Shown in pieces: positions 43,301 to 54,154 of a stretch of 64,000 nt of DNA. A program made the position numbers and the translations under genes. The notes below the pieces were generated by a model, which saw only the letters and a program-made list of their open reading frames with translations, was not told the DNA's origin and ran no database searches. The DNA is from an uncultured Deinococcaceae bacterium (GTDB taxonomy: Bacteria; Deinococcota; Deinococci; Deinococcales; Deinococcaceae). Each line of letters opens with the position of its first letter. Position 1 is the first letter of the stretch. The stretch spans positions 205,637-269,636 of the forward strand of contig CAVQOU010000001.1 in assembly GCA_963714515.1 (NCBI GenBank). Reading direction: 5' to 3'.

Positions 43301-43319
43301 TATTGAGCTCAGGGCGTGA

Positions 43320-44496
43320 TTACAGTAAGCGCATCACGATGGGGCAGTTGACGATAATGCCGCTGGAGCCGAACTTCGTGCCGGCAGGACCAGTGATAAA
43401 GCCTTTTTGTACCAGCGAGAGGTACTGGAATTCGTTCGATAACCCTTGAGCGGTAGTCTTTGCTCACGGCGTTCGCCGTCCACTCGCCCACATTGACGTC
43501 CCACAGCGGGCTGTAATCGGTGGCGACGGTCGGAATGCCGCCGAGAACATTGAGCGGCCCATCTGGAGCTTTGTCACCCAGAGCGCTGTTCAGGCCCTGG
43601 CGCTGCGGATTGCCCAGGCCCATCGGCCCGTTGACGGTGGTAAAGAGGCGCTCTACCGCGCTGAATGCCCCGTCGTCTCGTCCCACCAGGATATCTTGCA
43701 GGCCCGGCGCGAGCGTCACATTTTCAAGGGACGCCACGGCGGCGTCGCTGGCTTCCAAGCTCAGGTACGACACCGGTTTGCCAAAGCTAAACCCCGGCGT
43801 CAGGGCCAACGTTACGGTTTGGTCGTTGGGGCAAATCTTGAGCACCTTGTCATGCACGAGGTCGTGGTTGACGCCGCCCTCACAGTTGTTGATTTGCTCA
43901 GCCTTGACATCAAAAGCCACGATGGGCGCGTTGTAGATGTGGCCGCCCGCGTTGGTGACTGAGATAATCGGGCTGTAGTCTTGGTCGCCGACGCCGCCGG
44001 GCTGAAAAGCTGTGGGCGGAAAGAAATTCGGCGCGTTGCCGGGGGTGACGGCGTGCTTGGGCGCAAAATCCACCGTGCCGCGTGAAAAGGTCAGGCTGCC
44101 GTCTTTCTCCAGTTTGGCTGGACGGGCCGAGCGTTCCGTATTGCCGTAGGTGAGTTTGGACGAGTAGTTGAGGCCCAGTGCGTTGGCGTTGCCCTGATCA
44201 TCGGTGTCGGTCAGGATGTACCACACCGAGCGTCCATCGTTCATCTGGCCTTTGTAGAGCGGCAAGGTGATGCTCTTGCCGTCGCTGCTGATCTTACCGG
44301 CCCTGAGCAGCAGCAGCGGCCCCACGAGCTCTTTCTGAAAGGTAGAGGGCGCTGGCCCCTGGTAATCCTGGCTGATATTGGAACCGATGGCCGAGGGCGG
44401 CGGCGTGATGTCACTGGCGTTTTGAGCCAAACTGCCGGAAACGGTGAGCGCCAAGCTGACGAGCAAAATACTGGGCAGTCTGGGTTGAATACTCAT
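43320..44496 (-). CDS. Secreted hypothetical protein; frameshift near 43430, probable true end ...IVNCPIVMRLL
   Basis: AGGAGG RBS, signal peptide, long ORF with DYSPI/DYSPLW and NAP/NCP motifs. Confidence 0.75.
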
Positions 44497-44746
44497 GTGG
44501 GGCCTCCTGAAGGCACAGCGGCGGCGTTGTCGGTGCCCCTGGCTGGGGGCGCTCCGACGTTCTGGATGGGCTTTAAGAATTTGTTCTTGACCGGTCTTAG
44601 TGAGAGATACGCAGCTGTTCAGGGGAAAGTTCAAGTTGATTTACTTTTGACCGAGCTTTGACCGGGTGAGTTGCAAGCTAAAAGCGTGCCAGACGCTCCG
44701 CCCAGTTCAGTCCCTCACAGCGGCGCGGCGGCACAGGAGGAACCAC

Positions 44747-44998
44747 ATGTCCAGAACAGAGCAAACCAAGCGCCGTCTCCTTAACCTCGCCACTGCCGCC
44801 GTTCTCGTTTCCAGCTTGAGCATGGGCGGTCAGGTCAGTGCCCTTCCCAACACGGGCGGCGGCACCGGCGGCACCGGCCCGATTGTCATCTCGCCCACCG
44901 GCTGCGAAACCCACTGCTCGTATTTCATCGTGTGGGTGACCTTTGGCGGCTTCCGCTTTCCAGTCCTGAAGAAAGTGTGCAGCCAGGTCTGTTATTAG
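44747..44998 (+). CDS. 83-aa secreted Cys-rich peptide (predicted two-disulfide beta-hairpin)
   Basis: AGGAGG RBS, signal peptide ending VSA, Gly linker, CxxxC-x20-CxxxC, host-like codon usage, own terminator. Confidence 0.8.
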   Translation: MSRTEQTKRRLLNLATAAVLVSSLSMGGQVSALPNTGGGTGGTGPIVISPTGCETHCSYFIVWVTFGGFRFPVLKKVCSQVCY

Positions 44999-45012: not shown

Positions 45013-45050
45013 AAGCGGGAGCGCTGAGATGATCGGCGCTCCCGCTTTTT
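45013..45050 (+). terminator. Rho-independent terminator after the peptide gene
   Basis: AAGCGGGAGCGC...GCGCTCCCGCTT followed by a T run. Confidence 0.8.
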
Positions 45051-45073: not shown

Positions 45074-46342
45074 TTACTGCGGGCCGTCTACCCAGCGGCC
45101 TTCTCGCATTACCGCCACCCGGCGACCACCTGCGCTCAGGGCCGTGACCTGAAGCTGCGGCGAGCCCACCATGAAGTCCAGATGCAGCTGGCTGTGGTTG
45201 CCGCCCGCCGCCTGAAACTCGGCCAGTCCCAGCTCGGCTCCGCCCCTGAGCGTCACCGGGTAGGCCCGCCCCAGCGCCAGATGACACGAGGCGTTCTCGT
45301 CGATCAGGGTGCTGTAGAAGGTGCGGTGTTCGCTGGAGACCAGGCTCCCCTCGCTGACCAGTGCCACCTCGCCGAGACGCGCCGCGCCCTCGTCGGTGCT
45401 GAGCAGTTGCCGCAAGGTGGCTTCGCCGCCGGGACAGCGCAGGTCAGTGACCCGCCCTCCTGCAAAGGTCAGGTCCAGTTCCTCGATCAGTTGCCCGTGA
45501 ATGACCAGCGGACGGGTCATGCGCACCCGCCCTTCGGTTAGGAGGCGGTGCGGCAGGGTGGAGATTTCCTCGGTGGGCATGTTGGGAACGCCGCGCAGGC
45601 CGAGCGTGCTGGGCACCAGCGGCCCGAACCACTGGTGGGCGTCCGGCAGACCGACTCGCAAATCGGTGCCGGGACCCTCAAAGTGCAGTTCGCGGATCTG
45701 AAGGGCGTCTAAGGCCGCGCAGCGCTGCATCAACTGAGCCGCGTGGGTCTGCCAGGCCTGCGCCGGATCGGGCGTATCGAGCCGCATCAGCCGCGTCAGC
45801 ACTTCCCAGAGCCACGCCAGCGCCGCCTCTGCCGAGAGGTCGGGGCGCAGCAACTTGGCCCAGGCCGGGGTCGCCACCGCCATGACCGACCAGTTGAACT
45901 GCACCCTTGAGCGCCGCATGCCGTAACTCTCCAGCGCGGCGTTGCGGGCGGCGGCGGCCAGACCCGCCCGCTCGCCCATCTCCCGCTCACCCAGTCCCCG
46001 CTCGCCCAGCCCACTCCCCGCCGAGTGGGGTTGCGGCGCGTGCAGGCTGAGCATCGGCTGGCCCGCCTCGGCGTGGGCATTGAGCGCCTGGGCGGTCCAG
46101 GCCGGAAAGGTGCCCAGGCGCTCCAGCGGGGCGTGCTGCACCTTCAGGCTGCCCGCATAGGCGTCTTCATAGAGGAGCTCCACGTCGGCGGCCCCCACCC
46201 CATAAGCGGCCTGGGCAATGGCCTGGGCGGCCAGGTAAGCTTCGGGCGGGCTGACGATCAGCAGGTGTTGATCCGGCTGAACCGGCACGGCGACCCGCAC
46301 CGCCAACTCGGCGTAGCGGCGGTAAAACGCTTGATCCGGCAT
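45074..46342 (-). CDS. M29 aminopeptidase (AmpS/PepS/AmpT family)
   Basis: NMPTEE, LGEVALV, TLIDENASCHLALG.AY, N.S..HLDFM. Confidence 0.92.
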   Translation of the reverse strand: MPDQAFYRRYAELAVRVAVPVQPDQHLLIVSPPEAYLAAQAIAQAAYGVGAADVELLYEDAYAGSLKVQHAPLERLGTFPAWTAQALNAHAEAGQPMLSLHAPQPHSAGSGLGERGLGEREMGERAGLAAAARNAALESYGMRRSRVQFNWSVMAVATPAWAKLLRPDLSAEAALAWLWEVLTRLMRLDTPDPAQAWQTHAAQLMQRCAALDALQIRELHFEGPGTDLRVGLPDAHQWFGPLVPSTLGLRGVPNMPTEEISTLPHRLLTEGRVRMTRPLVIHGQLIEELDLTFAGGRVTDLRCPGGEATLRQLLSTDEGAARLGEVALVSEGSLVSSEHRTFYSTLIDENASCHLALGRAYPVTLRGGAELGLAEFQAAGGNHSQLHLDFMVGSPQLQVTALSAGGRRVAVMREGRWVDGPQ

Positions 46343-46353
46343 GCGGGGTTCCT

Positions 46354-46944
46354 TTACACCAGTCTCGGCGGCGTGCTCATGGTCAGGATACGGGCGGTGG
46401 CCTTGCCCGCGTTGCCCAGGCGGTGCGGCAGGGCGCAGGGATAATAGGCGCTGTCACCGGAGCGCAGGGTGCGGGTGGGGGCGTCGTGGACGCTGAGCTG
46501 AATCTCGCCCTCCAGGACGTACACGAATTCTTCTCCGGCGTGCCCGGTGTCGTTGCGGTGCTCGGTGGCCGGCTCAAGGGTCAGCAGCACCGGCTGGATT
46601 TTTTGCAGCAAGCTGTTAAACAAGACCTCAACCTGGATGCCGGGGCTGAGTTCCACGGTGCGCGGGGCCTCACCCCGGCGCACGATCTTGAGGAAGTCGG
46701 CGCGGCGCTCGTCCGGCAACAAATCGGCGGCGCTCAGGTGAAAGGCGGCCGCCACCCGTTGCAGCAGCGTGGACGAAACGTCGGTCTGACCGCGCTCGAG
46801 CATGCTCAGAAAGCTGCGCGAGCAGTTGGCGGCGTCGGCCAGTTGTTGCAAGGTCATCCCGCGTGCTTGGCGCAGCGCCCGCAGCCGTTCGCCGAGGTGC
46901 AGGCGTTCGGGGGGCAGACGATCAGGGAGCGCTTTACTGTTCAC
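46354..46944 (-). CDS. XRE-family HTH + cupin regulator (PuuR-like)
   Basis: LRALRQARGMTLQQLA...SFLS.LERG; H.GEEFVYVLEG, GDS.YY....PH. Confidence 0.9.
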   Translation of the reverse strand: MNSKALPDRLPPERLHLGERLRALRQARGMTLQQLADAANCSRSFLSMLERGQTDVSSTLLQRVAAAFHLSAADLLPDERRADFLKIVRRGEAPRTVELSPGIQVEVLFNSLLQKIQPVLLTLEPATEHRNDTGHAGEEFVYVLEGEIQLSVHDAPTRTLRSGDSAYYPCALPHRLGNAGKATARILTMSTPPRLV

Positions 46945-47821
46945 GCGGGTTGAAGGTGTCACGCAGTCCATCTCCTAGAAAGTTGATTGCCAGTACTGTA
47001 CCCAGTATGGCCGCGCCGGACGGCAACCACAGCCACGGCTGGGATTGCAAGACCGTGATGGTGCGGGCGTCCGAGAGCATATTGCCCCACGACGCCACCG
47101 GCTGCTGCACGCCCAGGCCCAGAAACGACAGGGCACTCTCGGTCAAGATCGCCTCGGCCACGCCCAGGGTGGTCTGCACGATGATCGGCGCGGCGGCGTT
47201 GGGCAGGATGTGGCGAAACATGATGCGCGGGTCGCCCGCTCCCAGAGCGCTGGCCGCCTCGACGTATTCCAGGTGGCGCAGCTTGAGCGTCTCGCCGCGC
47301 ATCAGCCGGTAGGTCGGCACCCAGCTCAGCAGCCCGATCACCGTGACGGTCGTGAACAAGCTGGGCTTGACGAAACTGGAGACCGTCAGAATGAGGAACA
47401 AGCTGGGAAAGGCCGCCACCGCGTCGGTAAAGCGCGACAACACAGTGTCGGTCCAGCCGCCCCGGAACCCCGCGATGACGCCCAGCACCACGCCAATCAC
47501 CAGCGCCAGCAGCGCCGCGCTGATGCCGATGGTCAGCGAGACCCGGGTGCCGAACATCAGGCGCGAGAGCACGTCGCGCCCCAGGGTGTCGGTGCCGAGC
47601 CAGAATTCGGCGCTGGGCGGACTGGCAAACTGGATGGTGCCGCTGGGACTCGTCGCCAGATTGTAAGGATCGTAGGGAGCCAGGATGGGCGCAAACACCC
47701 CCACCAGGATCAGCAGGGCCAGCACCACCACGCTGATGACGGCCAGCCGGTGCCGGGTAAAGCGCCCCAGACTGCGCCCACGCCCAGGCCGCAGGCGCGG
47801 TAAGACCGGCGCGGCGTTCAC
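46934..47821 (-). CDS. Oligopeptide ABC permease (OppC-like)
   Basis: WLGTDTLGRD, YVEAASALGA, ESALSFLGLG, NFLGDGLRD. Confidence 0.93.
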   Translation of the reverse strand: MNAAPVLPRLRPGRGRSLGRFTRHRLAVISVVVLALLILVGVFAPILAPYDPYNLATSPSGTIQFASPPSAEFWLGTDTLGRDVLSRLMFGTRVSLTIGISAALLALVIGVVLGVIAGFRGGWTDTVLSRFTDAVAAFPSLFLILTVSSFVKPSLFTTVTVIGLLSWVPTYRLMRGETLKLRHLEYVEAASALGAGDPRIMFRHILPNAAAPIIVQTTLGVAEAILTESALSFLGLGVQQPVASWGNMLSDARTITVLQSQPWLWLPSGAAILGTVLAINFLGDGLRDTFNPREQ

Positions 47822-48783
47822 GCTTCAAACCTGACGCGCGGATCGATCAGTCCGTACAGCACGTCCGCCACCAGGCTGCCGACGATCACCAGCACGGCGG
47901 TGATGGTGTTGATCGCCATCGACACCGGGTAATCGCGGGCGAACACCGAATCGACGAGCAGGCGGCCCATCCCCGGCCAGGCGAAGATGGTCTCGGTGAT
48001 GACCGATCCGGCAAAGAAGGCGGGCAGCGAGAGACCCAGCAGCGTCACCACCGGAATCAGGCCGTTGCGCAGGGCGTGCTTGAACAGAATGCTGCGCTCG
48101 CCCACCCCCTTGCTGCGGGCGGTGCGGATGTAGTCCTGGCGCAGCGCCTCGCTGACCGAGCTGCGGACGTGCCGCAAGATGCCCGCAATGCCGGTCAGGG
48201 TCAGCACGCACACCGGCAGCACCATGTGCCACAGCCGGTCAAACAGCAGCGCCCAGCCCTGGTGGTCGGCACTGTAACTCTCGAAGCCGGAGGTGGGAAA
48301 CCAGCCGAGCTGCACCGAGAAGAGGTAGATCAGGCTGAGGCCAAAAAAGAAGCTGGGAATGCTGATGCCGGCAAACACCAGCGTGGTGCTGAGGTAATCG
48401 ATCAGCGAGTAGGGCCGGGCGGCGCTGTAGATGCCGATGCCCAGCGCGGTTACCACGATCAGCACGAAGGAGGTCAGGGTGAGCAGCAGCGTCGGCCCGG
48501 CCCGCTGCTTGAGCAGGGCCGTGACGCTCTGACCGTTTCTGACCGAGTAGCCGAAGTTGCCCCGCGCCAGATTCGACACCCAAGCCAGGTACTGCACCGG
48601 CACCGGTTTGTCGACGCCCAGGGCAGCCTCAGCCCGGGTGATTTCCTGCGGACTCATGCGCGGATTGATGAACGTCTGCATCGCGTTGCCGGGGGCCAGG
48701 TTCATCACCGCGAAGCTGATAAACGACACCATGATCAGCAGCACGGCACCTTGCAGCCCCCGCTTGGCGATGAACGGCAGCAC
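47818..48783 (-). CDS. Oligopeptide ABC permease (OppB-like)
   Basis: DYIRTARSKG, HALRN, ETIFAWPGMG, DVLYGLIDPRV. Confidence 0.93.
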   Translation of the reverse strand: MLPFIAKRGLQGAVLLIMVSFISFAVMNLAPGNAMQTFINPRMSPQEITRAEAALGVDKPVPVQYLAWVSNLARGNFGYSVRNGQSVTALLKQRAGPTLLLTLTSFVLIVVTALGIGIYSAARPYSLIDYLSTTLVFAGISIPSFFFGLSLIYLFSVQLGWFPTSGFESYSADHQGWALLFDRLWHMVLPVCVLTLTGIAGILRHVRSSVSEALRQDYIRTARSKGVGERSILFKHALRNGLIPVVTLLGLSLPAFFAGSVITETIFAWPGMGRLLVDSVFARDYPVSMAINTITAVLVIVGSLVADVLYGLIDPRVRFEA

Positions 48784-48786
48784 CGC

Positions 48787-50421
48787 TTACTGTACCCACC
48801 AACGCGCCACGTTGACGTTGACGCCCCGGATGTCCGGCGCGAAGTTGTGCAACCGGGTCTGGTTGCCGTAGAGCGCCTGCGCCTGGGTCAGCGGAATCCA
48901 GGGCAACTGGTCACGCATCAGGAGGCCGAACTGGTTGTAGAGCGATTTGCGGGCGGTCTGGCTGACGGTTTCCTGGCCCCTGGTCAGCAGGTTGCCGCCG
49001 GAGGGGTCGGTGTAGCCGGTGAAGTTGTAGCCGTTGGGCGGCTGACCGTCGGCCGTGAAGTACGACAGGTACTCGCTGGGGTCGCGCTCGATGCCGAAGC
49101 CCAGAATAAACAGGTCAAAATCCGTGGCGTTCACGGCGCGGGGCTTGCTTTGCCCGTCTTTGGGCAGCAGGTAGGTCACCAGCGTCGGAAAGTCCATGCT
49201 CTGCAAGTCGACCTGAACGCCGATCTGGCGCAAATTGGCCTGAATCAGCGCCGCGCCGCGCTCGCGCACCGGGTTGCCGGTGGTGTAGAACAAGCGCAGT
49301 TTGAGGGCCTTGCCGTCCTTGCTGCGCACCCCGCCGCTCAGCTTCCAGCCCGCGTCGTCCAGGGTTTTCTGGGCCAGCGCCGGGTCATAGGGAATGGCTT
49401 TAACGTTGCTGGGGTAGGCCCAGTGCGATTTGGGAAACAGGGTGTCGACCACCGTGCCGTAGCCGGACATCAGCCCGGTCACGATGGCCTTGCGGTTGAT
49501 GGCGTAGGCCATCGCCGTGCGCACCGCTTTGTCGGCCAGAACGGGGTTTCTCAGGTTGGTGCCGACATAATCAAAACTCAGCTGGTTGACCACCGTCAGC
49601 TTGACGTTGGCATTGTCCTTGACGCTCGCCACGCTCGGCACCGGCACCGGAGCGGCGTCCACCTCGCCCTTGACCAGCGCGGCCAGCATGGTGTTGGCGT
49701 CGCCGAAGCGCACGATCAAGCGGTCGAGGCAGGGCCGACCCGCAAAATACGTTTTGTTGGCTTCGAGCTCAATGAGTTCGCCGCTGCGGTACTGCTTGAA
49801 CTTGAACGGGCCGCTGCCGACGGGGTTGCGGTTGGTGGCGTCTTTTTGCCAGTTTTCCACCGCGACCTTGCCGTAGATGTGCTGCGGCAAGATCATGATG
49901 CCCGCCAACGTCGCCAGAATCGGAGCGTAGACCTTGTCGGTCGTGAGCGCGATGGTGCGGTCGTCGATCACCTTGATGCCGCTGACCGAGGTGGCCTTGC
50001 CGTCATGGTAGGCGTCCGCGCCGCTGAGCACCTCCACCTGACTGAACGCGCCGCCGTTGTACTTGGGGCTGGCGATGGCGCTGAGGGTAAAGGCCACGTC
50101 TCTGGCGGTCAGCGGCTGGCCGTCGTGCCACTTGACATTGGGGCGCAGCTTGAGGGTGAGGGTTTTCTTATCGGCGGAAAATTTCCATGACTGCGCCAGG
50201 TCCGCTTGGTAGTTGAGGTCGGCGGTGGGTTTGACCAGGGCGTTGAAGACCAGTTCTTCAATGTTGGTGTCATAGGTGGTCGGAAAGATCAGCGGGTTGA
50301 GGTTGCCGGGTTCGCTGTTCTGGGCGATGGTCGCCGTACCGCCGACTTTGGGGCAGGTGGCCGTTTGGGCAGCAGCGCCGGCGAGGAGCAAAGCGGCGGA
50401 CAGGAAAAGCAGTTTACGCAT
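48787..50421 (-). CDS. Oligopeptide ABC substrate-binding protein, family 5
   Basis: Signal peptide, LRPNVKWHDGQPLTARDVAFT, PVGSGPFK, VR.AMAYAINR. Confidence 0.93.
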   Translation of the reverse strand: MRKLLFLSAALLLAGAAAQTATCPKVGGTATIAQNSEPGNLNPLIFPTTYDTNIEELVFNALVKPTADLNYQADLAQSWKFSADKKTLTLKLRPNVKWHDGQPLTARDVAFTLSAIASPKYNGGAFSQVEVLSGADAYHDGKATSVSGIKVIDDRTIALTTDKVYAPILATLAGIMILPQHIYGKVAVENWQKDATNRNPVGSGPFKFKQYRSGELIELEANKTYFAGRPCLDRLIVRFGDANTMLAALVKGEVDAAPVPVPSVASVKDNANVKLTVVNQLSFDYVGTNLRNPVLADKAVRTAMAYAINRKAIVTGLMSGYGTVVDTLFPKSHWAYPSNVKAIPYDPALAQKTLDDAGWKLSGGVRSKDGKALKLRLFYTTGNPVRERGAALIQANLRQIGVQVDLQSMDFPTLVTYLLPKDGQSKPRAVNATDFDLFILGFGIERDPSEYLSYFTADGQPPNGYNFTGYTDPSGGNLLTRGQETVSQTARKSLYNQFGLLMRDQLPWIPLTQAQALYGNQTRLHNFAPDIRGVNVNVARWWVQ

Positions 50422-50466
50422 GGTGAACCTCCGGAGCGAAGCGGGACGACAGGGAAGCGGGGGAGA

Positions 50467-51636
50467 TCAGCGGGCGGTCCAGAGCTGCTGCTGGCGGGTG
50501 CTCAGGTACTGCGGGCCGGCGTGGGTCACCAGCACGTTTTCCTCCACGATCATGCTGGGGTCGGGACTCATCAACACGGTGGGTTCCAGGGTAAAGACCA
50601 TGCCGGCTTCGACGCTCAGGCCAGGAGCGCGGCGTTTGTTGTCCCAGCGCGGGCCGAGCACCGCGCCGCCGTCGTGGACATGCCGACCAATCTGGTGGCC
50701 GGTGGAGTGCTGGATTTCAGGATAGCCGAGGCCCAGCAGGTGCTGCCGGGCGGCGGCGTCCACCTGATGGCCCAGCGTTCCCGGCTGGAGCGCGGCAAAG
50801 GCCGCGTCAATCGCGCCGTAAATTGCGGCAAAGACCTGCTGCTCGCGCTGGGGCGGGGCGTCTTCGCCCTCCTTGAGAAAGTAAACGGTGCGGGCAATGT
50901 CAGAAAAGTAGCCCTCTACTTCCAGCGCGGTGTCCAGAATCAGCAGGTCGCCGGGCACGACGGCCTCGTCGGTGGGCGCGCGGTGCGACATGCCGACCCG
51001 GTTGATCAGCACCAGCGGCCCGCCGAAATCGCCCGGATCGGGGGACGCGCCGAGTTCGGCAGCGAGCGCGTTCATGCGGGCCTGGATCTGGCGCTCGGTC
51101 TGTCCGGCGCTGAGGGTTGGCCGCAGCCGGTCATAAAATTCCACGGTGAGGGTGATGGCGCGTTGCAGGCGGCGCAGTTCTTCCGGAGACTTGATGGCCC
51201 GCACCCGGCCCAGCCGCTCCTCGCTGCTCACGATGTGTACCCTGGGCAGCGCGGCCCGCAGCACTTTTTCAATGAACAGGTATTGCCCGTGGGTCAGACC
51301 GTCGCAGCGCACGTCGTGTTCGCTGAAGTTGAGCAGCACCGTGTGGGGAGCGAGTTCGCCGAGCCAGCCGATCAGGGCCTCGTCAAACGAGGCGGCGTAA
51401 CTGCGCGTTTCTATGAAACCCGAGTGCTGCTCAAAATGCCCGGCGTCGATGCGCGACACCAGCGCTTTGGGGTGGCCGCTGCTCTCCAGCATAAAGGCGG
51501 CCTTGCCCACCGAATTGGTATCGAAGACCAGATTGACGTTGGGATCGCTGCCCTCCTGGGTCACAAACAGCCAGAGTTCACCGGCCTGGAGTTGCTGCGT
51601 GGCCTGCCGTGCTTTTTCTTCGCCCAGTGCTGACAT
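50467..51636 (-). CDS. M24 metallopeptidase (Xaa-Pro peptidase family), paralog A
   Basis: RAIKSPEE, D...EGYFSDIART, HSTGHQIG, LEP, VEE metal ligands. Confidence 0.9.
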   Translation of the reverse strand: MSALGEEKARQATQQLQAGELWLFVTQEGSDPNVNLVFDTNSVGKAAFMLESSGHPKALVSRIDAGHFEQHSGFIETRSYAASFDEALIGWLGELAPHTVLLNFSEHDVRCDGLTHGQYLFIEKVLRAALPRVHIVSSEERLGRVRAIKSPEELRRLQRAITLTVEFYDRLRPTLSAGQTERQIQARMNALAAELGASPDPGDFGGPLVLINRVGMSHRAPTDEAVVPGDLLILDTALEVEGYFSDIARTVYFLKEGEDAPPQREQQVFAAIYGAIDAAFAALQPGTLGHQVDAAARQHLLGLGYPEIQHSTGHQIGRHVHDGGAVLGPRWDNKRRAPGLSVEAGMVFTLEPTVLMSPDPSMIVEENVLVTHAGPQYLSTRQQQLWTAR

Positions 51637-51700
51637 TGCGTCCTCCCGAGGTCTACGGCCCCGTGTATGACTGCCCAAGTCTTAGCATGCTGGCTGACAG

Positions 51701-51716
51701 CAGTCAAGATATTGAA
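51701..51716. promoter_or_regulatory. Operator-like motif CAGTCAAGATATTGAA overlapping the leftward -35 (TTGACT)
   Basis: 14/16 identical to the reverse complement of 51825-51840. Confidence 0.6.
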
Positions 51717-51814
51717 TTTCACTGGGGTTATGCTGGGCTGATTGCACCCCAGGTTTCCGCTTCGGCGTCCAAATAGGCCGGTAGGGAGCTGATCTGACTT
51801 TGCAGGGGCGCTGC

Positions 51815-51840
51815 TTGAACTGTGTTCAATAGATTGACTG
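51815..51840. promoter_or_regulatory. Operator-like motif TTCAATAGATTGACTG plus overlapping inverted repeat TTGAAC-N3-GTTCAA at the rightward -35
   Basis: Inverted copy of 51701-51716; TTGACT followed 19 bp later by TACAAT. Confidence 0.6.
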
Positions 51841-51929
51841 GAAGCCCGCCGCCGTCGCTACAATCGCCGCACGGAAGAGCAGCATAGCAAACCCGCGTTC
51901 GGGCGGCCCAGTCAGCGGGAGGCAGGAGG

Positions 51930-53099
51930 ATGGACACACTCGCGCAGCAAAAAATTACCCAGGCCCAGGGCCTGCTGGGGCCGGATGAAGTCTGGCTGTT
52001 TTTGACCCAGGAAGGCAGCGATCCCAACGTCAATCTGGTCTTCGGCACGGCGCTGAGTGGCCGGGCGGCGCTGATGCTGCACCCCCGGCGCGGCGCACTG
52101 GCGCTGTGCGCCAATTACGACCGGGGCCATCTGGAACACCAGGGCCAGTTTGCCGAACTCCGCGACTACACCCGGAGTTTTGCCGACGCTTTCTGCGATT
52201 GGCTAACCGAACTCGCGCCGCAGACCCTCTGGCTCAACTTCAGCGAACACGATTCGCTGGCCGACGGCCTGAGTTACGGCCAGTACCTGAGTACTCGAGC
52301 GGCTTGATTCACCAGACGCTGCCCGCTGCCCAGCTTCGGAGCAGCCAGGACCTGCTACGCACCGTGCGCGGCGTCAAGACCCCCGAGGAACTGCGCCGCC
52401 TTCAACGCGCCATCGACCTCACGGGCGAGATGTACGACCGGCTACGGCCCACCCTCAGCGCCGGACAGACCGAACGCCAGATTCAGGCCCGCATGAACGC
52501 GCTGGCCGCCGAACTCGGCGCGTCGCCGTACCTGGGGGGTCACGGCGGGCCGCTGGTGTGCATTAACCGGATCGGGCCTGGCGCACCGCGCTCCGACCGA
52601 TGAAGCGCTGCGCCCCGGCGACCTGCTGATCCTCGACGCGGGCCTGGCGGTGGAGGGTTACTTCTCCGACATCGCCCGCACGCTGTATGTTCGGCAGCCG
52701 GGCGAGGACCAGGCCCCCGCCGGGCTTCAAGCGGTCTTTGGGGCCATCTACGCGGCGATTGACGCGGCCTTTGCCGCGCTGAGACCCGGCGTGAGCGGCG
52801 TGGAGGTGGACGCCGCCGCCCGCAGCGCCCTTCGGCAAGCCGGACAGCCCGAACTCAGCCACGCCACCGGCCACCAGATCGGGCAGCGCGTTCACGACGG
52901 CGGCACCCTGCTCGGCCCCGACTGGGAGCGCTACAACGCAGCCTCGCGGGGACGGGTGCAGGCGGGCGAGGTCTATACCCTGGAGCCGACGGTGGTGCAG
53001 TCGCCGCGGCCCAGCATGATCGTGGAGGAAAATGTGCTGGTGACGCCGAGCGGCGCACGGTATTTGAGCCGCCGTCAGGAACAGCTGTGGCTGATCTAG
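51930..53099 (+). CDS. M24 metallopeptidase, paralog B; frameshifts near 52295 and 52575
   Basis: WLFLTQEGSDPNVNLVF, VKTPEELRRLQRAI, EGYFSDIART, HATGHQIG, SMIVEENV. Confidence 0.85.
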
Positions 53100-54154
53100 C
53101 GGCGAGTCGGCTGACCGCCCTGCGCGGGGTGCTGGGGCCAGAGGTGGAGGCGGTGCTGATCACCGCGCCGTCTCAGCTGCGGGCCTTCTGCGGGGTGCAG
53201 GTCTCGGCGGGCGCGTTGGTGCTGACGCCCCAGGACACTGTGCTGCTGCTCGATCCGCGCTACCAGGCCGCCGTGACGGTGCCGAGCGGCGTGACCCTGA
53301 GGCCGTACGCCAACGCCCGACTGTTCTCCCAGGCGGTGCGGGCGGTTCTGACAGACGCCAGACGCATCGGCGTCTACGCCCCCGCGCTCAGTCTGGCCGA
53401 GATGAAGGCGCTGAGTCCCCAGGATGACCTGAGCTTCGTGCCGATCGACGCGGTGATAGACGAACGGACCAGTCTGCTGAACGGTGACGAGTTGGCGGCG
53501 ATGCAACGGGCCGAAGCCCTCACCCGGCGGGCCATCGCGGCGACGTTCGCGGCGCTGCGCCCCGGCATCAGCGAACGCCAGCTCGAGCGGGTGCTGCTGG
53601 AGCAACTGGCTGAGGGCAGCGAAGGGCCAGCTTTTCCCCCGATTGTGGCCTTCGGAGAGCGCACCGCGCTGCCCCACGCCCATCCCGGCGAAGCCCGCTG
53701 GCAGCCCGGCCAGCTCGTTACGGTGGACGCCGGAGCCGTCGTAGACGGCCTGCACGCCGATCTGACCGACACGCAACTGATCGGTGGAGCGCCGCAGGAC
53801 TCCTCACGCGCCCAGGAGCTGCTGTCGCTGACCCGCCGGGCGCTGAGCGCGGCCATCCGCGTGACCCGCGCGGGCGTGCCGGCCAGCCAGATCGACGAAG
53901 CGGCCCGCGCCGTGTTCCGGGAAGCGGGGCTGGACGACCACACCCTGCGCGGCATCGGGCACGCGCTGGGCTACCGAGTCCACCAGTATCCGATTCTGCG
54001 CGAACACGGTCAGGAAACGGTGCAGCCGGGTCAGGTGCTGGCGCTGGAGCCGGGCGTGTACCTGCCGGGCTTCGGCGGCGTGCGGCTGGAGGAGATGGTG
54101 GTGGTCACAGCAGGCGGCGCGGTGCCGATGTCGGCGTGGCAGGCGCGGCCGTGA
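53087..54154 (+). CDS. M24 aminopeptidase P-like protein (third, divergent copy)
   Basis: AFPPIVAFG, ALPH, DAG......D.T, GH.LG, EPGVY.PG.GGVRLEE. Confidence 0.88.
   Translation: MADLAASRLTALRGVLGPEVEAVLITAPSQLRAFCGVQVSAGALVLTPQDTVLLLDPRYQAAVTVPSGVTLRPYANARLFSQAVRAVLTDARRIGVYAPALSLAEMKALSPQDDLSFVPIDAVIDERTSLLNGDELAAMQRAEALTRRAIAATFAALRPGISERQLERVLLEQLAEGSEGPAFPPIVAFGERTALPHAHPGEARWQPGQLVTVDAGAVVDGLHADLTDTQLIGGAPQDSSRAQELLSLTRRALSAAIRVTRAGVPASQIDEAARAVFREAGLDDHTLRGIGHALGYRVHQYPILREHGQETVQPGQVLALEPGVYLPGFGGVRLEEMVVVTAGGAVPMSAWQARP

Follow-up and report, generated by a model that had tools for sequence, protein, structure and literature searches.

A predicted secreted disulfide hairpin peptide of Deinococcus, its uncatalogued family and the probable SARP-type operator upstream of its genes

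The window gene and its predicted product

The window, a stretch of 64,000 nucleotides from an uncultured Deinococcaceae bacterium (assembly GCA_963714515.1), lies on the smaller of the two contigs of a 3.1-Mb assembly (65% GC, 77.6% complete). The genome carrying the window gene is referred to as G000; G012, G066, G087 and similar labels denote other genomes, P denotes protein homologues and L denotes loci. The gene encodes a peptide of 83 residues (Table 1), and its translation and strong ribosome-binding site are as given in the preliminary description of this DNA. In a single soil DNA run (n=1; 0.06 share), the ORF was without coverage.

Table 1. Positions of the hairpin peptide genes and of the predicted signals around the window gene.
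Feature	Position	Strand	Basis
Secreted hairpin peptide precursor, 83-aa ORF	44747-44998	+	Translation, purifying selection, homologues
Ribosome-binding site AGGAGG	44735-44740	+	Sequence; 6 nt before ATG
Predicted Sec signal peptide, residues 1-32	44747-44842	+	Basic N-region, hydrophobic core; read by eye
Mature N-terminal X-Pro-x-x-Gly-Gly segment and flexible linker, residues 33-52	44843-44902	+	Alignment, low pLDDT
Predicted beta-hairpin, residues 53-83; predicted cross-strand disulfides C57-C78 and C53-C82	44903-44995	+	Alignment, AlphaFold2
Intrinsic-terminator-like stem-loop (GC-rich stem) and U-tract	~45013-45050	+	Folding
Predicted SARP-type operator, two direct repeats at 11-bp period	44644-44665	+	Common to all five G000 peptide genes
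Operator core TTTGACC, two copies	44646-44652, 44657-44663	+	Sequence
Predicted -10 hexamer CAAGCT	44674-44679	+	Fixed distance at all sites of this repeat
Intact paralogue: signal peptide, X-Pro-x-x-Gly-Gly arm, Cys-closed hairpin	G000 C2:390858		
Intact paralogue: signal peptide, X-Pro-x-x-Gly-Gly arm, Cys-closed hairpin	G000 C2:880728		
Intact paralogue: signal peptide, X-Pro-x-x-Gly-Gly arm, Cys-closed hairpin	G000 C2:900109		
Fifth hairpin gene, frame-broken in the assembly, 8-residue loop	G000 C2:615594-615742		

Comparison of the window gene with its G087 orthologue over the last 42 codons gives 15 identical, 19 synonymous and 8 non-synonymous codons, and third positions carry 23 of the 36 base changes; the gene is coding and under purifying selection. 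The signal peptide noticed earlier ends in an alanine, Ala32, that is invariant in all nine aligned members, and cleavage is predicted after this residue, a position placed by eye. The KRR of the signal peptide does not correspond to a conserved twin-arginine motif across the homologues, so that export by Sec is more likely than by Tat, and a Tat reading was rejected on this ground. A sortase substrate of the LPXTG type was also rejected, as LPNTG stands directly after the signal peptide and its Leu, Asn and Thr vary. Pro34 and Gly37 are invariant in the alignment. The folded region 3′ of the ORF reaches -35.3 kcal/mol (z -5.65; none of 200 shuffles was as good), which agrees with the dedicated terminator described before, although the stem-loop is absent from the list of a simple terminator scanner.

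The cysteines of the mature peptide, at residues 53, 57, 78 and 82, form nested pairs whose index sums are both 135, with Gly67-Gly68 at the centre, and the hairpin that had been proposed from this symmetry is borne out by the homologues. P0004 has lost both outer cysteines together, and the inner loop of the G012 copy is 7+GG+7 residues as against 9+GG+9 in the window peptide, a symmetric 2+2 deletion; the paired loss and the symmetric deletion support the hairpin register. AlphaFold2, with a nine-row alignment, places strands at residues 53-66 and 69-82, with pLDDT of 80-90 over residues 51-80, and in the paralogue at C2:900109 it places strands at residues 34-47 and 61-74, with Cys38 and Cys70 in register. 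The two independent models are long hairpins with cysteines in cross-strand register, in an output that gives no disulfide geometry. In a 2:2 hairpin, the Cys pairs of the window peptide would fall on non-hydrogen-bonded positions. The window gene product is thus predicted to be an exported peptide that folds into a disulfide-stapled hairpin, and the genes for DsbA- and DsbB-family proteins, which lie side by side in G000, make disulfide formation available.

Conservation of the cysteines and of the Gly-Gly turn, which had been proposed as a check, holds in part. The C57-C78 pair is invariant, but the outer C53-C82 pair is dispensable, with a single pair in 5 of the 10 aligned members, and Gly-Gly is not invariant, the turn being GG, NG or HG in the close clade and of a D-x-x-G type in most paralogues. 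Among the orthologues, the hairpin is the best-conserved part of the peptide, and the Gly linker varies in length and sequence. A proline in strand 2, which would cap one edge of the hairpin, is retained in nine of ten members. Over these ten members, the net charge of the hairpin ranges from -1 to +3 (+2 in the window peptide) and its GRAVY from -0.68 to +1.07, the lowest value belonging to a paralogue that is both acidic and hydrophilic. The hairpin tip is hydrophobic on both faces, the G087 orthologue has no tip arginine, and Lys-Lys stands near the C-terminal strand in four of five close orthologues.

The neighbours of the window gene encode a DUF7482 protein, HtrA, an M29 peptidase, an XRE-cupin protein and an ABC transporter, and no modifying enzyme, dedicated exporter or immunity gene was found beside it, in keeping with the unmodified peptide proposed earlier. 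Other copies of the hairpin gene have unrelated neighbours. The DUF7482 protein is secreted, and its gene (43309-44497, minus strand) is divergent from the peptide gene and lies between it and htrA as an insertion relative to G012. The plasmid sequences closest to this htrA are from Deinococcus in all four records. An HtrA activator is a minor possibility for the role of the peptide: its gene is divergent from htrA in G000 (with one gene between) and in G012, but this arrangement is missing in G087, and two plasmid htrA loci have no annotated peptide. On the other side of the gene, positions 45074-54154 hold a family-5 peptide ABC transporter, an XRE-cupin regulator, an M29 aminopeptidase and several M24 peptidases (Xaa-Pro type), and several ORFs of this region appear frame-broken. 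Frame breaks in the G000 assembly also hit conserved genes (serA, SerRS, regulators) and are probably sequencing indels, and calls of small genes in it need care.

Paralogues, relatives and distribution of the family

Three homologues were found by protein search among five candidates, and a search of 1.84 billion representatives gave four matches, one of which, a long Gly-rich protein, was discounted. Genome searches added the orthologues from G012 and G087, and a profile search found full-length members in 4 of 111 genomes of the genus (G000, G012, G066 and G087); in seven further genomes, the weak profile matches are short Gly-rich peptides or unrelated secreted proteins. Among 1238 protein candidates, the profile picked out nine family proteins. 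In an order-wide profile search of 251 genomes, two weak matches were obtained outside G000, and the one inspected is spurious. A plasmid search with the peptide gave no match. Single-peptide scans of genome, metagenome and viral contigs confirmed no relative and also missed the known G087 orthologue, so that such scans are insensitive or leave out near records.

Neither a family match nor a fold match of significance for the peptide came up in Pfam, NCBIfam, PHROGs or PDB. At E<=0.001, Foldseek retrieved nothing from PDB, and the PDB sequence search gave only noise at E 0.7-0.9. A match to an already characterised family, which the preliminary description had named as evidence against its proposal, was not obtained from these libraries, which contain no model for bacterial unmodified disulfide hairpins of this kind. 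The hairpin peptides form a genuine family, so far uncatalogued, of bacterial peptides that are secreted and closed by disulfides.

Five hairpin genes are present in G000, and they are scattered and monocistronic-looking, each with a stem-loop behind. Their inner loops are of 8, 20, 21, 30 and 31 residues; across the family the hairpin loops are of 16-31 residues, with the 8 of the frame-broken gene apart. Because frame breaks are frequent in this assembly (14 of 65 orthologue-like queries, some of them counted twice), the break of the fifth gene is plausibly an error. The near-identical P0002 stops after strand 1, which is a variant or an assembly error. The G087 orthologue of the window gene lies, with its operator, within a prophage-like element at tRNA genes. 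Elsewhere in G087, at L079:6900-7049, the orthologue of a different paralogue shows an in-frame loss of the hairpin core, and its operator is degenerate; it retains the signal peptide, the N-terminal motif and a C-terminal C-x3-C.

The shared upstream repeat and its candidate activator

Before each of the five G000 peptide genes, TTT[AGT]AC occurs twice at a period of 11 bp, and an x-A-x-x-x-T hexamer stands 10 bp after the second 7-mer; the boundary of the 11-nt repeat unit is the analysts' choice, and the period and the distance from core to hexamer are observed. A single extra TTGACC half-site lies near 44587, upstream of the window gene. In SARP promoters, as given in the accessible portion of PMC10936776, the direct repeats are 11 bp apart and the 3′ repeat is 8 bp from the -10. 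The repeats of the hairpin genes match this geometry in period and in distance to the -10. There is good support for the repeat being a SARP operator, and since one repeat is common to all five genes, they are likely to be switched on together. OmpR-type activators can use the same repeat geometry.

The broad operator pattern has 11 exact sites in G000 and none in each of six simulated genomes, and genus-wide it has 66 matches in 18 of 111 genomes as against 6 control matches. In G000, 14 sites differ from the pattern by no more than one base; the second repeat has C or T as its seventh base in the five peptide promoters and G in the other nine, and over the 3.1 Mb of this genome the C/T subtype stands at the five peptide genes and nowhere else. 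Genus-wide, the C/T subtype has 15 matches in 10 of 111 genomes (2 in the control): five at the peptide genes of G000, one at the G087 orthologue, six next to the six best homologues of the regulator and three elsewhere, two of which look like chance; this pattern was tuned after the survey of regulator loci, and the counts therefore show specificity and are not an independent discovery. Of the three other genomes with a homologue of the window peptide, G087 has the operator, and G012 and G066 do not. A metagenome scan with the operator gave family members at none of 118 loci among the matches listed.

Three regulators of the domain order AAA-TPR-wHTH-BTAD, with BTAD, TPR and AAA matches in profile searches, are encoded in G000, and in each case a repeat site lies no more than some 1.2 kb from the 3′ end of the gene. 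One of them, at G000:C2:896677-899721, is tail-to-tail with the paralogue at C2:900109, and another lies two genes upstream of the fifth peptide gene; a TPR regulator adjoins two of the five peptide genes, the window gene not being one of them. When 17 loci of regulator homologues were surveyed, C/T-subtype sites flanked all five of the best C-terminal matches, whose recognition-helix motif is similar to that of the G000 regulator, and none of the 12 weaker ones, one of which has a G-subtype site. The C/T subtype beside the six closest regulator homologues, together with the tail-to-tail paralogue, points to the protein of C2:896677-899721 as the likely activator, and, as far as such gene and site arrangements can tell, it quite probably activates the peptide genes. 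The linkage of a wHTH-BTAD activator to repeat sites is found in G000 and in the best homologues, but G087 is a counter-case, as no regulator of the AAA-TPR-wHTH-BTAD type was detected in that genome though it keeps the operator; the close homologue of L177 (48% identity overall) also has no site nearby. Elsewhere, the closest regulator homologues appear to control genes for an SCO4226-like protein, a methyltransferase and a hydrolase and have no peptide gene in their vicinity, and the hairpin peptides therefore look like outputs of the activator and not like its inputs.

The arrangement resembles that of AfsR and afsS and other SARP promoters of Streptomyces, where, according to PMC10936776, 11-bp repeats overlap the -35 at a fixed short distance from a weak -10, and a small gene is the target of a large activator that combines wHTH, BTAD, NTPase and TPR domains. 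Unlike in AfsR, the domain order of the G000 regulator is AAA-TPR-wHTH-BTAD, with a C-terminal DNA-binding part, and the operator core is TTTGAC; the NCBIfam AfsR model scores 38.7 on this protein against a cut-off of 1430. Whereas SARPs of Streptomyces act on biosynthetic clusters, the targets here would be scattered genes for secreted peptides. A literature search, mostly of open-access main texts, found no description of small secreted cysteine bacteriocins of Deinococcus, of Deinococcus quorum-sensing peptides with TPR proteins, of Deinococcus proteins with BTAD and TPR, or of a SARP-driven secreted regulon. Hairpins of this fold and promoters of this logic are both known; neither the libraries nor this targeted search showed the two combined. 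The preliminary description was sound in its observation and incomplete in its context, missing the paralogues, the shared SARP-type promoter and the link to the Gly-rich cassettes considered below.

Clade-wide, most genes of the wider TTTGAC regulon encode secreted proteins, membrane proteins or Ig-like lipoproteins, and a SAM methyltransferase is also among the products. In one Deinococcus clade, TTTGAC[G/A] repeats with an 11-bp period stand before genes for Ig-like lipoproteins, secreted proteins, proteases, a SAM methyltransferase and a membrane protein of 134 residues (for example L032:1568-2866, L014:1540-1941 and L019:1567-2385), a conserved regulon that is apparently undescribed. The idea of C-terminal-BTAD regulators governing all of the TTTGAC regulon was rejected, as they were not found in G003, G087, G032 and G119. 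A candidate activator for the G-subtype sites is an AfsR-like SARP-AAA-TPR protein encoded beside serA (L113:2448-5765, minus strand; G000:C2:526579-523384). At least three exact sites are present in seven of eight genomes with a close AfsR-like orthologue and in 3 of 103 others, a contrast between close kin and so not an independent test; judged by this co-occurrence, the protein likely drives the G-subtype sites.

Glycine-rich cassettes and the possible role of the hairpins

TPR-wHTH-BTAD regulators without an AAA domain are encoded in 38 of the 111 genus genomes, G000 not among them. Of 64 matches, 30 loci were fetched (L135-L164), and at 21 of the 27 informative ones the regulator gene has a divergent neighbour that encodes a small secreted Gly-rich peptide and stands behind 11-bp repeats (for example L142:1169-1327 for the peptide and L142:1501-3381 for the regulator). 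These peptides begin with D/E/N/Q-P/G-x-x-x-x-G-G/P-G, and two have only 11 mature residues; the cassette is a candidate for peptide signalling. In hhalign (99.4%), the alignment between the cassette regulators and the homologous TPR-wHTH-BTAD portion of the AAA type spans 547 columns. The N-terminal motif is present in all four intact hairpin paralogues as against 8 of 445 other signal-peptide-like ORFs, for which the p of 3e-7 is an overstatement because the motif was written after the peptides had been inspected. When a profile made from the cassette peptides alone was run over 449 signal-peptide-like ORFs, the hairpin paralogues ranked 1, 2, 20 and 41, the window peptide being 20th and the regulator-adjacent paralogue 41st. 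A complex prediction for a cassette-type TPR region (400 aa) and its divergent Gly-rich peptide scored 0.02. The mature N-terminus of the window peptide resembles the Gly-rich peptides of these SARP cassettes, and the hairpin precursors probably owe their design to such peptides of the genus.

The reading favoured here, tentatively and with somewhat less than even confidence, is that the peptides are a SARP-induced set of secreted, target-binding effectors. After export by Sec, one or two disulfides would hold the window peptide in a beta-hairpin, and a STAND-type SARP activator would switch on its gene together with the four paralogues. Outside the cell, the hairpin would act without lysis and dock on a protein that neighbouring microbes secrete or carry in their envelope. 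Contact might be made through the free edge of a strand or through the hydrophobic tip, in the manner of thanatin on LptA; the conserved proline of strand 2 might cap one edge and stop endless growth of the sheet, and the five divergent hairpins might form a small arsenal against different targets. Thanatin, in the available parts of PMC7237710 and PMC11573584, is likewise a disulfide-closed beta-hairpin with an N-terminal arm, and its binding of an envelope protein is the model for the proposed action, but it is an insect peptide of 21 residues with a shown target, and the hairpin family has no sequence likeness to it. Selection on the hairpin, paralogues that differ in loop and surface, and activator homologues without a peptide suggest that the peptides are outputs of a SARP programme, and the low and variable charge fits target binding better than lysis. 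Among the roles suggested earlier (bacteriocin, membrane insertion or beta-augmentation), target binding of the beta-augmentation kind is predicted to fit best. Several findings are at odds with an effector: no copy has an immunity gene next to it, a lack that counts as neutral only where the producer is without the target; the operator is kept in one of three other homologue genomes, that genome having no detectable regulator; the L177 homologue is without a site; and P0002 and the G087 copy of another paralogue have no complete hairpin. The N-terminal motif held in common with signalling-type peptides favours a signal instead.

In that alternative, which is possible but rather unlikely, the peptide is a signal precursor whose X-Pro-x-x-Gly-Gly piece, once trimmed off, would be taken back up through an oligopeptide ABC transporter and bind to the SARP activator's TPR sensor, in a positive feedback like that of PlcR-PapR, with the hairpin as a protease-resistant carrier or surface anchor. 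The frequency of the divergent cassettes, the homology of their regulators to the AAA type and the two top ranks in the cassette profile argue for it, as do the family-5 ABC transporter, M24 peptidases and M29 aminopeptidase that adjoin the window gene. The precursor also resembles RRNPPA systems (in the accessible text of PMC9765709) and the Deinococcus TPR-SARP cassette in its Sec-type propeptide, its TPR-bearing cytoplasmic regulator, its secreted-protein regulon and, as predicted here, a peptide gene under the regulator's promoter. In this family, however, a hairpin domain is appended and is the best-conserved part, the genes are dispersed and not divergent from the regulator, and the regulator has an AAA domain and a SARP output; an RRNPPA receptor has an N-terminal HTH or three-helix bundle and belongs to Bacillota, whereas here a TPR is present but the output is a C-terminal wHTH-BTAD, in Deinococcus. 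RRNPPA systems are described for Firmicutes, and Deinococcus is not mentioned in the accessible text of PMC9765709. The low profile ranks of the window peptide and the regulator-adjacent paralogue also speak against a signal, as do a hairpin that orthologues keep better than the N-terminal piece (the Gly motif is reduced in P0004 and P0005), the absence of the divergent-cassette type of regulator from G000 and the activator homologues without a peptide partner. It would be strange for one receptor to have five dissimilar signals, the other copies do not share the transporter neighbourhood, and Gly-rich segments can converge. It is improbable that the hairpins are surface or matrix material, self-associating or coating the surface as hydrophobic adhesive or surfactant units that are expressed alongside the Ig-like and collagen-like lipoproteins of the regulon. 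The doubly hydrophobic tip and the long two-stranded sheets with free edges would suit such a role, and the co-regulated genes do include those for Big_5 lipoproteins and other surface proteins, but the proline of strand 2 would be expected to hinder endless sheets, the operator subtype of the peptides differs from that of most lipoprotein genes, and a distribution as patchy as 4 of 111 genomes is unlike that of a core structural unit.

A cationic, membrane-lytic peptide of the tachyplesin or protegrin type, freed by removal of the linker, is less probable still. As far as PMC10608444 describes them in its accessible part, animal hairpin peptides (tachyplesin, polyphemusin, arenicin) have two antiparallel strands, a tight turn and one or two disulfides and come from a secreted precursor, and the nested two-disulfide topology predicted here from covariation and AlphaFold2 is that of the tachyplesins. 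SARP activators typically drive antibiotic output (accessible part of PMC10936776), and the Lys-Lys of the close orthologues would also suit a lytic peptide. The animal peptides are, however, short (about 17-21 residues; same part of PMC10608444), strongly cationic and amphipathic, whereas the window hairpin is of 30 residues at +2 with a tip that is not facially amphipathic, and the family, which is bacterial and without sequence match to them, has hairpins of 10-33 residues, a low and variable charge with one acidic member, and a Gly-rich N-terminal arm; the missing immunity gene counts here as well. The antimicrobial-like architecture of the preliminary description is therefore retained for the topology, and not for the charge, the faces of the tip or the loops of 16-31 residues. 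That the ORF has no function, being a chance or decaying reading frame, is hardly credible: the distribution is narrow and two natural copies are truncated, but the synonymous excess, the paired Cys loss, the symmetric deletion, the ribosome-binding site, the terminator and the shared operator all contradict it.

A wider picture, speculative and rather doubtful as a whole, would be a SARP-based system of peptide communication and attack in Deinococcus, in which a precursor design of signal peptide and X-Pro-x-x-Gly-Gly arm gained disulfide-stapled beta-hairpins, a STAND-type activator induces a dispersed arsenal of five unmodified hairpins that hit envelope proteins of competitors, and the N-terminal arms may feed back. 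If true, it would be a bacterial counterpart of the hairpin host-defence peptides of animals, one that cluster-based mining would overlook and that its operator would reveal. The paralogues have diverged too far for ordinary searches but are picked up by the operator, so that it offers a mining route for cluster-free peptides, and the predicted activator, operator and targets make a testable SARP regulon outside the actinomycetes. Hairpins that bind envelope proteins would be natural, easily made scaffolds for protein-binding or antibacterial leads; signal precursors, if that is what they are, would extend peptide signalling to STAND-type regulators.

Two further loci were noticed in the genus. 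At L076:4897-5180 (minus strand), two tandem tiny secreted peptides have C-terminal Cys-x8-Cys and Cys-x12-Cys loops, with a thioredoxin-like ORF behind; their contig is small and bears a TPR-SARP cassette as well. At L078:5815-12707, a gene for a Gly-rich secreted peptide stands at the head of one arm of a divergent, biosynthetic-looking cluster with, by eye, a monooxygenase, an ATP-grasp-like protein, a tRNA-synthetase-like protein and an MFS transporter, and a TPR-SARP regulator ends the other arm.
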